In this document: piece after piece, positions 3,395 to 41,536 of the stretch
Position numbering within the stretch: position 1 is the stretch's first letter
How the letters are laid out: every line of letters begins with the position of its first letter
Assembly: GCA_022840695.1 (NCBI GenBank)
Contig: JALHDC010000001.1
Coordinates: 169,281-233,280, forward strand
From: a bacterium
GTDB taxonomy: Bacteria > Patescibacteriota > Dojkabacteria > SC72
Direction of reading: 5' to 3'
DNA: 64,000 nt
Notes under the pieces: generated by a model
Database searches by the model: none
Seen by the model: only the letters and a program-made list of their open reading frames with translations
What the model was told of the DNA's origin: nothing
Position numbers and translations under genes: made by a program

Positions 3395-4660
3395 ATGAAA
3401 AAAACAATTGAGAGACTCAAATCTATATTAAGAACGAAGGAAATTCGGAAGAAAATAATCTTCTCGATATTGATATTAATTACATATAGAATTCTTTCTG
3501 CAATCCCTGTATCTGGTATTCCTGCAGAAGCAATTGTTAAACTATTTGAAGGAACCGGCTTTGGAGATATACTTTCAACCGTATCTGGAGGAGTTTTAGA
3601 AACAGCATCACTAGTTGCAATAGGGTTAACACCATACATTAATGCCTCGATCATATTTCAATTATTAGGCACAGTTATTCCTCAATTAGAAGAATTAGGG
3701 AAAGAAGGAGCGGAAGGTAGAAGAAAAATTTCTATGTACACAAGGATAGCTACTGTACCATTAGCAATCCTTCAATCATTTGTAATCTATTCCACTTTAC
3801 GAGGTTTTGGATTAGTAGAGACTTTAAATACCTTGGAATTAGCAACTATGTCTGCTACATTAACTGCAGGTTCAATGGTTATGATGTGGTTTGGAGAATT
3901 GGTCTCCGAAGATGGCCTTGGTGGAGGATCTTCATACCTAATAATGTTGGGAATATTGTCAGGAATACCTGGAACACTAAGATCAAATTTCCTAACCATG
4001 GATAATTTCCAAAAAAGTGTCTTTACTATTTTCTCAATACTATTAATCGTCGCAGTAATTATAATAAATCAGGCCGAAAGAAGAATTAAAATACAATACT
4101 CGAGAAGAGTTCGAGCTGGTGGTGCACTGGAAAGCTATATCCCAATCAAATTAACCCAATCTGGAGTTATGCCAGTAATTTTTGCAATGTCATTTCTCTC
4201 ATTCCCACAATTAATAGGAAAATTTATTGTGAGCCGAAATTTCAATGAAGAAGTTACTGTTATCACAGAAAAGATAATGAATCTACTTGAAAATCCATAT
4301 TTCTTTAATGGGGTATCATTTCTACTAATAATAGCATTCTCTTTCTTCTATTTAACTGTTGTTTTTAAAACTGACGAATTAGCAGAAAATTTACAAAAAC
4401 AAGGTGCTTTCATCCAAGGAATTCGACCTGGGGAAAGTACATCAAAATATTTACGAAAAGTAAGTTTTAGACTGACAGCAGTAGGATCAATTTTTCTTGC
4501 TTTGCTTTCTATTCTTCCAGACATCTTTGTTAGAACAGGTTTAATCTCTGCTGCAGTATTCTCTGGCACAGGGTTATTAATCGTTGTCGGTGTTATTCTT
4601 GATGTAAAAAGACAAGTTGAATCAATGATTACCGTCCGAAGCTACGATAAATACCTTTAG
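3395..4660 (+). CDS. secY: Preprotein translocase subunit SecY
   Basis: 421 aa, ten predicted TM segments. SecY-typical N-terminus (ILFSILILITYRILSAIPVSGI) and position after rplO. Confidence 0.95.
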   Translation: MKKTIERLKSILRTKEIRKKIIFSILILITYRILSAIPVSGIPAEAIVKLFEGTGFGDILSTVSGGVLETASLVAIGLTPYINASIIFQLLGTVIPQLEELGKEGAEGRRKISMYTRIATVPLAILQSFVIYSTLRGFGLVETLNTLELATMSATLTAGSMVMMWFGELVSEDGLGGGSSYLIMLGILSGIPGTLRSNFLTMDNFQKSVFTIFSILLIVAVIIINQAERRIKIQYSRRVRAGGALESYIPIKLTQSGVMPVIFAMSFLSFPQLIGKFIVSRNFNEEVTVITEKIMNLLENPYFFNGVSFLLIIAFSFFYLTVVFKTDELAENLQKQGAFIQGIRPGESTSKYLRKVSFRLTAVGSIFLALLSILPDIFVRTGLISAAVFSGTGLLIVVGVILDVKRQVESMITVRSYDKYL

Positions 4661-4713
4661 GTTGCTAAATATCACCGTGGTATCAAGGACTATATGCTTT
4701 TTATTAACGAAAT

Positions 4714-5214
4714 TTAATATTCTATAGGTGTATTGGATTCTATGAAGTTCAATACATAGAAATCAAAGAGAAATTTGTTAGTGAATAAATATTCGGATTT
4801 GTTAGACGAGCTGGTAATTGTAACATTATTTTCAATGTATTTGTAAACAATTTTCAATTGATCTTTAGTCGTAATGATCTTGCAATTGTAAGTACTTTGG
4901 AAAAGATGTCCAACAAAATTATATTTTTTGTTGAAATATTTTGTATATCTGGAGCTAATCTTTTGCATTACAGTTGCAATATTAACTTTTCCCTTTTGTT
5001 TTACTAATATGTGGTAATGGTTTGGTAGGAGACAATATGAAAGAATATCAAAATTGTTGGTTTGGAAGTGGTAGTGTAGTAGATTTTTAAAGAATAGGTA
5101 ATCTTTATTGCAAAGAAATATTCTCTCTTTTCTATTTCCCCTGTTATATAGATGTATAAGATAGGAACTTCTAGAAATTGTTTTAAATGTTTTTTTCATA
5201 ATTAGTTCTACCAA
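4714..5214 (-). mobile_element. REP-associated tyrosine transposase (RAYT) / IS200-like Y1 HUH transposase, 166 aa, antisense between secY and adk
   Basis: HUH motif LPNHYHILV. Also RAYT-like blocks (YLIHLYNRGNRKERIF, VGHLFQSTY, IVYKYIENN). Paralogous to the gene at 21882-22313. Confidence 0.7.
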
Positions 5215-5287
5215 ATAATTATGAAATCCTGATTAACTTGCCCTGTAGTATGTTAAAAACTGTTCATTTTATTGATATAGTTATTTA

Positions 5288-5296
5288 TGTTACAAT
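5288..5296 (+). promoter_or_regulatory. Candidate extended -10 promoter element (tgttacaat) upstream of adk, with AGGAGG Shine-Dalgarno at about 5323-5328
   Basis: TGnTACAAT, then the RBS AGGAGG 10 nt before the adk ATG. The -35 is weak or short-spaced. Confidence 0.3.
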
Positions 5297-5338
5297 CTTT
5301 CTAATTAATCTTGACATAGATGTAGGAGGATAATAAAT

Positions 5339-5983
5339 ATGACACTGCTTTTTCATGGGCCTTCCGGTTGTGGGAAGGATACGCAATCAGAGCTACTGGT
5401 TTCAAAATACGTTTTTCAAAGTATAGGGACAGGGGAAATGTTTAGAAAAATGTATTCTGATGGGGATATTTCCGCAATTAAAGCACATGAGTATTGGTCA
5501 AAGGGTCTTTTTGTTCCAAATGATTTAGTCTATGAAATGCTTGGAAGATGGATAAATAATTATGATCAAGAGAAGGATTGGATTTTTATTTCTGTTGTGA
5601 GGGAAGTCGGACAAATACCTTTATTTGATTCGCTTTTGGAGGGAAAGGGCAGATCTTTGGATAAATTCGTTCATTTTGTATTAAGTGAGGAAGCTGCTAT
5701 TGAAAGAATGTCTCTTAGAAGGGTTTGTGTGAATTGTGATGCCACATATCATAGTAAATACAAGAAAGAAAAGGTGGAGGGATATTGTGATAAGTGTGGT
5801 ACTATGTTGTCTCAGAGAGAGGATGACAAGCCAGAAAAGATTGTGAAAAGACTTGCAGAATACAATAGAACAATAGAGCCGATACTCCAAGAGTATCGTA
5901 ACAGAGGGATTTTACTCGAGATTGATGCAAATCCAAGTATAGAAGTGATCCATACAAATCTTGTGAAGCTTTTGAACTTGTAA
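5339..5983 (+). CDS. adk: Adenylate kinase with a zinc-binding LID (CxxC...CxxC)
   Basis: 214 aa. P-loop GPSGCGKDTQ, LID CVNCDATYH...CDKCGT. Classical operon position after secY. Confidence 0.85.
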   Translation: MTLLFHGPSGCGKDTQSELLVSKYVFQSIGTGEMFRKMYSDGDISAIKAHEYWSKGLFVPNDLVYEMLGRWINNYDQEKDWIFISVVREVGQIPLFDSLLEGKGRSLDKFVHFVLSEEAAIERMSLRRVCVNCDATYHSKYKKEKVEGYCDKCGTMLSQREDDKPEKIVKRLAEYNRTIEPILQEYRNRGILLEIDANPSIEVIHTNLVKLLNL

Positions 5984-6057
5984 AATAGACTTTTTTTTGT
6001 TATGCTTTCTCTGTTCTCTGATAGGTACCAAAATTACCGATATTTAATTACTTTTTG

Positions 6058-6086
6058 TTGAATTAAAGGTGTTCCTTTGATATAAT
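6058..6086 (+). promoter_or_regulatory. Sigma70-like promoter (-35 ttgaat, 17-nt spacer, extended -10 tgatataat) for the infA-rpmJ-rpsM-rpsK-rpsD-rpoA-rplQ operon
   Basis: Read directly: ttgaat at 6058-6063, tataat at 6081-6086 preceded by TG. It lies about 40 nt upstream of infA. Confidence 0.5.
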
Positions 6087-6124
6087 TCTGAGGATTGTCA
6101 CTAGATTGATAAAAAGAGATTTTT

Positions 6125-6358
6125 ATGAAAGAAAGCAAAAAAGTATTTGAATTTGACGGTATTGTAAAAGAGTGTCTGCCCAACACACAGTTTCTAGTTG
6201 AAATTGATGTAGAGGGTGTTAAGCATGAGGTTACAGGTTATCTGTCTGGGAAGATGAGAATGCATTACATTCGTATTCTTGAAGGTGATAAGGTGAAGAT
6301 CGAGATGACTCCATATGATAAAGAGAGGGGTCGTATAACATATAGATATATGAATTAA
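6125..6358 (+). CDS. infA: Translation initiation factor IF-1
   Basis: 77 aa S1-like OB fold. [21 protein letters not shown]...[24 protein letters not shown] is near-canonical IF-1. Confidence 0.95.
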
Positions 6359-6368
6359 AAATATTATT

Positions 6369-6485
6369 ATGAAAGTTCAGGCTTCTGTAAAAAAAAGGTG
6401 TCCAGATTGTTATGTAGTGAAGAGAGAAAGAAGGATCTATGTGTATTGTAAAAAGAACCCTAAGCATAAACAGAGGCAGGGTTAG
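6369..6485 (+). CDS. rpmJ: 50S ribosomal protein L36 (38 aa). Not in the ORF track because it is shorter than 60 aa.
   Basis: Manual translation gives [38 protein letters not shown], which is the L36 zinc-ribbon pattern. It lies between infA and rpsM as expected. Confidence 0.85.
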
Positions 6486-6511
6486 TTTTAATTAATTTTT
6501 TGTTATTAAAA

Positions 6512-6895
6512 ATGGCAAGAGTAGCAGGTATAGAAATATCAAATGAGAAGAGATTGTGGGTCTCTCTTATGGATGTCTATGGTGTTGGAGAAAGTAAAGC
6601 TAAGGAATTGTGTGAGAATACAAAACTTGATGGTAATAAATTAGTTAAAGATTTAAGTGAAGTTGAACTAGATGTTGTAAGAAGGTATATAGAGGAGAAT
6701 TTCAAGGTTGAGGGTGAATTGAGACAGGGAATATTTAGGGATATTAAGAGATTACAGGATATCAGAAGTTATAGAGGTGTTAGACATAAGTTAGGTCTTC
6801 CTGTTAGAGGACAGAGGACTAGACATAATGCAAGAACAAGAAAAGGAAAGAGTAGGCCTGTAGGTGGATTAAAACGTAAATTAGAAAAGACATAA
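6512..6895 (+). CDS. rpsM: 30S ribosomal protein S13 (start taken at MARVAGIEI; the track ORF begins 12 nt earlier)
   Basis: The MARVAGIEI N-terminus and RGQRTRHNARTRKG C-terminus are S13 signatures. Confidence 0.95.
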   Translation: MARVAGIEISNEKRLWVSLMDVYGVGESKAKELCENTKLDGNKLVKDLSEVELDVVRRYIEENFKVEGELRQGIFRDIKRLQDIRSYRGVRHKLGLPVRGQRTRHNARTRKGKSRPVGGLKRKLEKT

Positions 6896-21881: not shown

Positions 21882-22313
21882 CTAGACCTTCGTCCATCGA
21901 TAATCCGAAGGCTTTTTGACGATGCCATCACGAACCGGATTCTGTTTGATATAGCTTAACACCCGCATCTGGTTCTTTTTGTATGGCAAGTAATTGGCAC
22001 TGTACCTTCCTTGAAAGATGTGGCCAACTCTATTTCTTTTTCTGTTTATGTTAACAGCATAACTAGTGGTGACTCTTTGCATATAATTTGATAATTTTTT
22101 AGGATCCTTTCCTGTTTTTATCAAGAGATGAAAATGATTATCCATAATACAATAACTTACAAGCTTTATTTCGCAAATATCTTTGTTCTTGTAAAGTTGA
22201 TTGATGAACAAATTCTTGTCATCAGCATATTTAAATACTTCTTCCTTGTTGTTTCCACGATTGTATACATGGTAAAAACTATTCGGTTTGTAATTCCTTG
22301 GAGCTCTGGCCAT
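21882..22313 (-). mobile_element. REP-associated tyrosine transposase (RAYT, TnpA_REP; IS200/IS605-like Y1 HUH transposase), 143 aa
   Basis: FYHVYNRGNNKEEVF, HUH motif MDNHFHLLI, GHIFQGRY, YIKQNPVRDGIV..PSDYRW. These match the RayT/YafM-type consensus and the gene is flanked by inverted REP-like repeats. Confidence 0.8.
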
Positions 22314-22353: not shown

Positions 22354-22376
22354 GGGACAGAGGAGGGTCAGACCCT
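22354..22376. repeat. REP-like G/C palindromic repeat (right flank of the RAYT gene)
   Basis: ggggacagaggagggtcagaccc, the inverted partner of 21848-21869. Confidence 0.6.
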
Positions 22377-30979: not shown

Positions 30980-31104
30980 GCTCAAATTATATATCATGAC
31001 AAGGACTATTGGTAGTAAATGAACGAAATTTAAGATTCTATAGGCAAAAATCATAGGAATGGTATGATATAATAATATTTAGTTAATATAATAAACTCAC
31101 AGCA

Positions 31105-41449: not shown

Positions 41450-41536
41450 ATTACGTTTTACCTTTAAGTTAGTCAAAAATACTTACTCTTAAGCAAACTA
41501 TATAGGTATTATTAAAGAAATTTAATATACTATGAG

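Follow-up and report, generated by a model that had tools for sequence, protein, structure and literature searches.

The window, by which is meant the whole stretch of 64,000 nucleotides that was analysed, has a G+C content of 32% and includes a co-directional block of ribosomal genes in which secY and adk are separated by a gap of 678 nt (4661-5338). The gap carries a gene of the Y1 HUH tyrosine-transposase family on the opposite strand, the sole real minus-strand gene within at least the first 13 kb of the block. Among named genomes, the closest ones with this locus are Candidatus Dojkabacteria MAGs, found in a scan of a genome collection (best match 40% identical). The first-pass annotation, which was made from the sequence alone, had placed such a gene antisense in the 678-nt gap and had stated that its insertion disrupts no gene; the family assignment is borne out by Pfam, by profile-to-PDB comparison and by fold search, and the neighbouring genes are indeed undisrupted. 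The features of the locus, together with two further copies of one of its flanking sequences (module M), are as follows.

3395-4660, plus strand: secY (Pfam SecY, E 9.5e-94), whose stop codon (4658-4660) bounds the cassette site on the left
4684-4729, plus strand: secY-side arm (module M), with a distal box GGACTATAT at 4687-4695 and a proximal box ATTTAATATTCTATAGG at 4712-4728
4714-5199, minus strand: gene for a Y1 HUH tyrosine transposase-like protein of 161 aa, starting with the ATG at 5199 (Pfam, fold and orthologs)
5241-5284, plus strand: adk-side arm, M in inverted and degenerate form, with a proximal box CCCTGTAGTA at 5241-5250, TTAAAA at 5253-5258, a 17-nt spacer and a distal TATAGT at 5276-5281
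5288-5296, plus strand: extended -10 of the adk promoter, TGTTACAAT, a TGnTAnAAT box that is present in empty relatives too
5323-5329, plus strand: strong Shine-Dalgarno (SD) sequence of adk, TAGGAGG, read from the sequence
5339-5983, plus strand: adk (Pfam ADK and ADK_lid), right border of the cassette site
31000-31045, plus strand: solo module M between the divergent genes glyS and lysS (blastn 83% over 46 nt; nhmmer E 1.5e-9)
41493-41536, plus strand: solo module M ending just before the ATG (41537) of a HAD-like gene (blastn 84% over 37 nt; nhmmer E 7e-7)

The Y1 gene is the single sizeable open reading frame (ORF) of the gap. An alternative TTG start upstream (5214) would give a product of 166 aa (4714-5214); the ATG at 5199 is favoured by the orthologs and by the public gene call P0001 (161 aa). 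No SD was found for the gene, and the gap contains neither a tnpB partner nor a second ORF. An Rfam scan of 4300-6600 gave no match at E up to 1. A tblastn search of the 64-kb window for a further copy or remnant of the gene recovered only a second Y1 gene, a paralog of 31% identity at 21882-22313. A limited full-text literature search turned up no earlier description of a Y1 gene in Dojkabacteria or in the spacer between secY and adk.

The encoded protein matches Pfam Y1_Tnp (PF01797) with 53.1 bits (cutoff 23) over model positions 4-121 of 121, and 14 of 14 aligned relatives match the same model. The NCBIfam models of the REP-associated tyrosine transposase (REP_Tyr_transpos, NF047646) and of IS200 (NF033573) gave 40.5 and 21.2 bits, under their cutoffs of 80 and 55, respectively. 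Against the PDB the single sequence returned noise only and a profile of the orthologs was required for matches; the profile found E. coli TnpA-REP (4ER8, E 3.7e-4) and the TnpA of ISDra2, with HUH motif and catalytic Tyr in register. The AlphaFold2 (AF2) model has a pLDDT of 88.8 and places Y121 on helix 112-129. The best 30 Foldseek matches of this model in the PDB are all Y1 transposases; the lowest E-values belong to IS200/IS605 TnpA proteins, and the best TM-score and rmsd to 4er8 (TMq 0.57, 3.7 A, 130 columns).

The ORF contains the motif LPNHYHILV. Residues H16, Y18-N22 (HxYNRGN), H61/H63 (the HUH motif, NHYH), G97, H98 and F100 (GHLFQ), Y121 and N125 are invariant in 20 orthologs, and the invariant positions across these orthologs (n=20) number twenty, catalytic residues included. 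At position 126 most orthologs carry P and the protein of the window V (YIENNV; consensus YIxxNP). Pfam detects no C-terminal domain in the protein, which has a length of ~155-165 aa (161 aa in the window); distant homologs of 190-280 aa exist. Its recurrent C-terminus PIEY* is the translated proximal box where the ORF overlaps that box, and in the window ATTTAATATTCTATAGG runs over the gene's final codons and its stop. By the model and the alignments, the protein has an HUH/Tyr single-strand DNA nuclease-ligase fold with the catalytic residues all retained, and the signature NHYH / FQ / Y---N(P) places it in class 2 TnpA-Y1, with subclass 2.1 as the nearest subclass.

Orthologs at the same site are present in about 20 lineages of one Dojkabacteria-like clade, in which SecY is ~95 to 72% identical to that of the window. 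Homologs down to 37% identity (P0001-P0010) all lie antisense between secY and adk, as do those in three species-representative genomes, and the next homolog (P0013) sits in another context. P0002 (104 aa, 80% identical) was considered as a degraded ortholog and rejected, as its full 161-aa ORF is intact and the start had been missed by the gene caller; L003, which encodes an identical protein and was considered as a different context, proved to be this very locus, on a contig of low coverage that contains indels. From the nearest to the farthest lineage, identity to the window decreases from 95 to about 73% for SecY, from 93 to 61% for Adk and from about 81-82 to about 36% for the Y1 protein, which evolves ~3x faster than SecY and Adk. 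The ratio dN/dS (NG86) of the Y1 gene is 0.117, 0.098, 0.103, 0.062 and 0.065 in five close, unsaturated pairs, in which secY has 0.03-0.09; values of 0.06-0.12 in close pairs point to purifying selection. The ORF is intact in all ~20 lineages, and the clades of the Y1 tree agree with those of the host tree (neighbour joining, NJ, on SecY+Adk) at every resolvable node. The 31% paralog aside, no Y1 copy beyond the secY-adk site was seen in any locus or in the 64-kb window.

These comparisons show a single site adjacent to the secY stop that has apparently been occupied since the ancestor of the Dojkabacteria-like clade, by a gene that co-diverges with its host under purifying selection. A recent or strain-specific IS200-like insertion, as implied by the first-pass annotation, does not agree with the same gene at the same site across the clade, with co-divergence, purifying selection, the lack of a second-site copy and the sub-cutoff NCBIfam scores. 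The synteny comparison with relatives, suggested there as a check of strain-specificity, spoke against it, with orthologs at the same site in about 20 lineages. The annotation had also held that its reading would fall if relatives carried the same gene at this site with no transposase features; relatives do carry the gene there, but with its transposase features preserved, not lost.

A scan of metagenomes by SecY alone delivered 57 loci with both secY and adk. Within the clade with SecY at least 71% identical, 17 loci are filled (gap 650-727 nt) and 27 are empty (gap about 10-110 nt); among the loci with SecY below 70%, which serve as the outgroup, none is filled and 13 are empty. Filled and empty loci are interleaved inside terminal clades of the NJ tree of SecY+Adk. 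The simplest history would be a single ancient acquisition, after which the gene descended vertically and was many times lost or replaced by another allele. So frequent a loss speaks against an important role in the host.

Clean borders of the insert could be read from only two pairs, L129/L130 and L131/L132, the intergenic sequence of the other clades being mostly too diverged; both pairs have a clean indel 0-3 nt past the secY stop, with the native spacer kept. The filled locus L102 and the empty locus L104 are 99-100% identical over most of their flanks and differ by a swapped tract of about 1 kb, with identity down to 88-95% in the final ~250 nt of secY and throughout the gap, and with breakpoints inside secY. 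A divergent tract between near-identical flanks indicates, at least here, homologous recombination that imported another allele. This swap is the one resolvable gain or loss event, and it is one of homologous recombination rather than transposition. In L112 the Y1 gene has the opposite orientation, and the cassette is bounded by a terminal inverted repeat (21/22) which extends from the first base past the secY stop to 2 nt before adk; the repeat also duplicates, in inverted form, an SD, an ATG and ~six codons corresponding to a possible in-frame adk start further upstream. Taken together, the alleles show a cassette that appears to have been repeatedly lost cleanly or swapped by homologous recombination, and to have been inverted once.

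In the orthologous loci the conservation of the secY-side arm exceeds that of the coding sequence. Read outward from the gene, the conserved core consists of a proximal [CT]T[AG]TAG, then N24-36, then a distal ATAGT. This bipartite core occurs at fixed positions in 14/21 gaps on the secY side and in 6/21 on the adk side, against 1-2 predicted from the window background, and in ten lineages with saturated synonymous sites ATAG(T) does not vary on either side. In the window the secY-side arm is well conserved and the adk-side arm degenerate; the two are 28/47 identical, and this pair alone is not significant (shuffle p 0.32). The adk-side arm is the best non-training match of a leave-one-out M model in the 64 kb, with a weak E of 0.54; the equivalent arm is significant in the close relatives L119, L008 and L117.

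Inverted repeats around the gene are clearer in relatives: 17/17 in L008, 19/20 in L117, 21/22 in L112, 30-65 nt with gaps in L137/L140/L141, and 11/11 at the edges in L021. They are significant versus shuffles in L112, L117, L008, L137, L140, L141, L021 and L129, and those of L112, L117, L008 and L137/L140/L141 beat or nearly beat 300 shuffles; beyond the short boxes no inverted repeat was detected in L012, L016, L102, L103 and L132. In L112, L137-L141 and L021 the repeat reaches the edges of the gap, and its sequence varies among lineages with the two arms matching within each lineage. Inverted repeats are not limited to this locus. The paralog at 21882-22313 is flanked by inverted GC-rich 22-mers containing GGGGWSAS, and for eight other CPR Y1 homologs, in unrelated contexts, the flanking inverted repeats equal or exceed nearly all of 100 shuffles.

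The solo copy of module M at 31000-31045 has 1 mismatch in a 21-nt core (chance expectation 0 matches) and is 36/47 identical to the arm at 4684-4729, spacer included. As the copies share even the spacer sequence, they are best regarded as a small dispersed repeat family, with three strong copies in 64 kb. The REP or hairpin sequences for which the first-pass annotation had proposed a search of the flanks are absent from the flanks in the window, which fold no better than shuffles, with no local ssDNA hairpin beyond chance (z +0.75 to +1.65). Arms of this kind, without local hairpins, are TIR-like rather than REP-like.

That adk has its own promoter-like sequence and a strong ribosome binding site had been noted before and holds, with boxes at 5253-5281 and 5288-5296, both conserved in relatives, and the SD TAGGAGG. 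A promoter scan identifies TTAAAA-17-TATAGT with a TG extension at 5253-5281 as a sigma70-like promoter facing adk. The box TGTTACAAT starts 6 nt downstream of this arm promoter, as in filled sites it lies just downstream of the arm; since the TGnTAnAAT box is also found in the short secY-adk spacers of insert-free relatives, it is probably the native promoter of adk. The gene would thus have its own predicted start signals whether the insert is present or absent. A perfect TTGACA at 5311-5316 was considered as a further adk signal and rejected, as the nearest relative lacks it in this form.

Both arms, read outward, have the form TTAAA(T/A)-17-TATAGT, so that their boxes double as -35/-10-like hexamers, and on the adk side it may be as a promoter that they are conserved. 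The boxes on the secY side face the 3' end of secY, where no gene follows, and their ATAGT is nonetheless invariant, which argues that the conservation serves more than outward transcription. Module M as a forward (plus-strand) promoter was rejected, as no conserved -35 stands at the proper distance; it fits a promoter only when reversed (TTAAAT-17-TATAGT), and two of the three strong copies then face the 3' ends of upstream genes. TATAGT, often as TGnTATAGT, is also present in the window upstream of a tRNA gene and of the paralog. From the positions and conservation of the boxes we infer that they are recognised by the enzyme encoded between them.

Y1 genes flanked by TIRs have been described as TIRYT genes within TIRtrons (PMC3733652), and TnpA-Y1 subclass 2.1 was equated by its authors with the TIRYT proteins and with RAYT group 1 of Bertels (PMC6006769; PMC5581495). 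The present locus resembles these in having a Y1 HUH gene between inverted repeats and not REP hairpins; the repeats are clear in relatives, and the arms of the window are 28/47 identical and not significant alone. TIRtron repeats may overlap the end of the gene, as occurs here at its 3' end, and form small repeat families in some genomes, comparable to the three strong copies in 64 kb; further features in common are a patchy distribution with loss and a copy number per genome of one or two, the copies being divergent. Class 2 TnpA-Y1 genes are known for low copy number, divergent intragenomic copies and patchiness through transfer and loss (PMC5581495; PMC6006769), and the two copies in the 64-kb window are 31% identical, with a tree congruent with that of SecY+Adk. 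Subclass 2.1 is characterised by a C-terminal HTH-like domain, a median length of 238 aa and the motifs NH[YF]H, FQ and Y[IV]HLNP (PMC6006769). The first two motifs are represented by NHYH and GHLFQ, whereas the protein has only ~160 aa, lacks the C-terminal HTH-like domain, and carries YIxxN(P/V) in place of the Y[IV]HLNP or YIELNP of subclass 2.1 and TIRYT. The TIRs of TIRYT genes have been reported to contain the motif GGGGWSAS (PMC3733652); the arms described here are AT-rich, bipartite and promoter-like and lack this motif, in contrast to the other Y1 gene of the window, which has it. Different from the described TIRYT genes are also the site, which is fixed in the spc-alpha ribosomal super-operon, and the host, a CPR/Patescibacteria lineage that was unsampled in those studies.

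TnpA-REP/RAYT of the REPtron type (E. coli 4ER8) gives the best structural superposition and the best profile match, shares the class 2 motif Y---N(P), and likewise is a single resident copy with vertical inheritance and housekeeping-like behaviour. REPs carry a GTAG tag, which the conserved TAG-containing box beside the Y1 gene recalls, as a lead only. The differences are that the flanks in the window are without REP hairpins, that only two further arm copies and no large REP/REPIN population are evident in the 64 kb, and that the NCBIfam score is 40.5 against a cutoff of 80. The IS200/IS605 TnpA proteins (IS608, ISDra2, IS200) are similar in fold, in the catalytic core (HUH and one Tyr) and in size; they differ in having Y---Q where the present protein has Y---N, and the IS200 score is 21 against a cutoff of 55. 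Nor does the gene behave like such elements, as it occupies a single fixed site without near-identical multiple copies, subterminal hairpins or tnpB, and co-diverges with its host.

The gap is therefore described here as what it probably is, a TIRtron-type cassette in which a resident class 2 TnpA-Y1 (RAYT/TIRYT) gene is bounded by inverted bipartite repeats, and the comparisons suggest an old, vertically inherited and repeatedly lost cassette rather than a fresh insertion. The enzyme would act on ssDNA at the (A/G)TAG boxes of its own arms, and perhaps also at the solo copies of the arm. Cutting and rejoining at these boxes would account for the clean empty sites, for the flipped lineage and for the small repeat family. 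Expression of the enzyme would be low owing to the antisense orientation and the lack of an SD. That the spc-alpha super-operon tolerates the insertion may be due to adk having retained its extended -10 promoter, to which the arm adds the outward TTAAAA-17-TATAGT; with these promoters, expression of adk-infA-rpmJ-rpsM...rpoA need not rely on read-through from secY. The first-pass annotation had offered tolerated antisense transcription or a domesticated function as explanations, of which the domesticated function comes closer.

An active, site-specific element similar to IS200/IS605, which would leave by precise excision and re-insert, or arrive from close relatives, at the 3' end of secY, would explain the patchiness by repeated gain and loss. 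Peel-and-paste Y1 elements such as IS608 and ISDra2 excise seamlessly and need a short target sequence. Clean presence or absence right after the secY stop with an intact native spacer fits such behaviour, and the catalytic residues are intact. In addition, the dS between L102 and L103 is 0.13 for the cassette and 0.34-0.39 for the flanks, so that the cassette was shared more recently than the flanks. We nevertheless consider an active element unlikely, since the Y1 tree tracks the host tree at all resolvable nodes, no copy at another site was seen in any locus or in the window, there is no tnpB partner, and the one exchange that can be resolved has the breakpoints of homologous recombination inside secY. 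The flanks in the window also lack subterminal hairpins, the NCBIfam IS200 score is 21 against 55, and the motif is Y---N and not the Y---Q of IS200, class 2 TnpA-Y1 being defined by Y---NP (PMC6006769 Table 1). A decaying, functionless remnant, be it a pseudogene or a spurious ORF, would be in line with the loss in many relatives, the fast evolution of the protein (about 82% identity where SecY has 95%) and the missing SD, but is very hard to reconcile with an ORF intact in all ~20 lineages, a dN/dS of ~0.1, twenty invariant residues including the catalytic ones and a confidently predicted fold.

The flanking boxes could also be ordinary host signals, namely the promoters of adk and of Y1 and a terminator or antisense promoter after secY, with Y1 as an unrelated passenger or accessory gene and the symmetry as a by-product of two divergent promoters of the same consensus. 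TTAAAA-17-TATAGT with its TG extension is a good sigma70-type promoter, TATAGT precedes a tRNA gene and the paralog in the window as well, the solo copies of M are intergenic and adjoin gene starts, and the arms form no hairpins. An outward promoter on the secY side would however have no gene to drive, and yet its ATAGT is invariant; the copies of M share their spacer (36/47), which promoters do not conserve; the repeats of L112, L137-L141 and L021 extend far past the promoter boxes and are lineage-specific but matched between the arms; and inverted repeats are the rule around other CPR Y1 genes in unrelated contexts. Host signals alone are accordingly judged an improbable source of the symmetry. 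A quite speculative reading, to which we give little credence, goes beyond the resident TIRtron-type cassette and takes it as an excision- and inversion-competent element homing to the secY stop sequence, which acts as a removable insulator: arms with outward promoters would uncouple adk-infA-rpmJ and the alpha operon from the spc operon, and Y1 would be the recombinase that flips or removes the element. The recurrent clean empty sites, the one flipped lineage and the concerted evolution of the arms up to the edges of the spacer are compatible with an insulator and do not demonstrate it. If true, the host would be using a RAYT-like enzyme for regulation.

In kind the element is one already known, a TIRtron-like resident Y1 HUH cassette, and it is found here at a new location. 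Noteworthy are the fixed site in the spc-alpha super-operon, the arms that double as putative outward promoters and the series of filled, empty and flipped alleles. The locus offers a tractable natural case for studying what 'domesticated' HUH transposases of the RAYT/TIRYT type do, as it combines dozens of alleles, filled and empty, whose backgrounds are otherwise nearly identical, with one inverted allele and short candidate recognition boxes. It lends itself to asking whether enzymes of this type cut and rejoin the sequences that flank them, and at what cost or gain for the neighbouring essential genes. The TIR-flanked Y1 arrangement is extended to CPR bacteria with very small genomes, in which the keeping of a non-essential gene is informative, and an antisense gene can evidently persist for long inside the spc-alpha super-operon. 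For annotation, 'transposase' calls of this Y1 family (RAYT/TIRYT-type) in CPR genomes should not be taken as a sign of recent mobility.

The first-pass annotation had regarded an insertion into one of the most conserved operons as unusual. The location is correct and the surprise is softened: in L026 two unrelated genes lie between adk and infA, so this lineage tolerates other inserts adjacent to adk, and insertions of genes into the ribosomal cluster have been documented (PMC8046335).

The window encodes a second Y1 HUH transposase-like protein, 31% identical to the product of the antisense Y1 gene in the secY-adk gap and located between tgt and a ribonuclease-Y-like gene. Its features, and two solo copies of module M, the 46-nt secY-side arm of the secY-adk cassette (4684-4729, overlapping the 3' end of the Y1 gene), are as follows.

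Second Y1 gene and solo copies of module M in the window
21882-22313, minus strand: second Y1 HUH gene, 143 aa
21848-21869 and 22354-22375: inverted GC-rich 22-mers bracketing the second Y1 gene, with 3 mismatches between them
31000-31045, same orientation as 4684-4729: solo copy of M between the divergent genes glyS and lysS
41493-41536, same orientation as 4684-4729: solo copy of M that terminates just 5' of a HAD-like gene's start codon

The 22-mers contain GGGGACAG / GGGGTCAG, matching GGGGWSAS, the published motif of the terminal inverted repeats (TIRs) of the TIRYT class of Y1 transposases (PMC3733652). Each 22-mer forms a weak, imperfect single-stranded DNA hairpin (z about -2). Because TGGTATAGT lies only 7 nt upstream of the ATG, the sequence suggests a near-leaderless mRNA for this gene.

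Comparable brackets occur in other Patescibacteria (CPR). Y1 homologs at eight loci of Dojkabacteria, Saccharibacteria and Nomurabacteria (L033, L099, L051, L076, L036, L087, L069 and L020), in unrelated genomic contexts, are bracketed by inverted repeats of 16-44 nt, and the GC-rich cores of such repeats are themselves palindromic, e.g. AGGTCTGGCCTAGG and CTAGGCCTTGCCTAG. Y1 genes of this family in CPR genomes seem as a rule to have a TIR/REP-like bracket. In the two solo copies of M the likeness reaches about 30 nt past the core on one side; these copies may act as promoters, or they may be left over from lost cassettes or be mobilised repeats.

In one lineage (L112, 3428-4075) the entire secY-adk cassette is flipped, which puts the Y1 gene on the same strand as secY and adk. 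The 22-nt terminal inverted repeat of this locus contains an inverted duplicate of GGAG-N3-ATG plus about six codons, which matches a possible in-frame adk start upstream. Since adk-start-like sequence is duplicated in inverted form within the repeat, expansion of the repeat by gene conversion as far as the secY stop codon is suggested.

In the subclade L101-L105 an in-frame ATG lies 8 codons 5' of where adk usually starts (MKNFNKPM... / MKNILNKPA...), which suggests an Adk with a short N-terminal extension; this extension differs between alleles with the cassette (filled, L102/L103) and without it (empty). The filled alleles carry a perfect hairpin, AACAGGG-TTA-CCCTGTT, immediately 3' of the secY stop (first 30 nt). 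The empty alleles of the subclade lack this hairpin, a possible terminator or element end.

From the secY 3' end to the adk 5' end, L102 compared with L104 (also L101 and L103) is an identity mosaic, with long stretches at 99-100% and the last approximately 250 nt of secY plus the spacer at 88-95%. SecY identity to locus L024 is 84-85% in all of L101-L104, whereas Adk identity is widely spread (94%, 78%, 86% and 79% in L101, L102, L103 and L104, respectively). Homologous recombination appears to be frequent here in the ribosomal cluster of these populations.

Downstream, infA directly follows adk in the window (5984-6124) and the map gene is absent there. In the Dojkabacteria MAG JAGPFQ01 (L026) two non-ribosomal genes separate adk from infA.

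Genes between adk and infA in L026
1954-4191: one gene for a 209-aa product, the other for a protein of 504 aa and unknown function

In this lineage the surroundings of adk seem to tolerate the gain and loss of genes.
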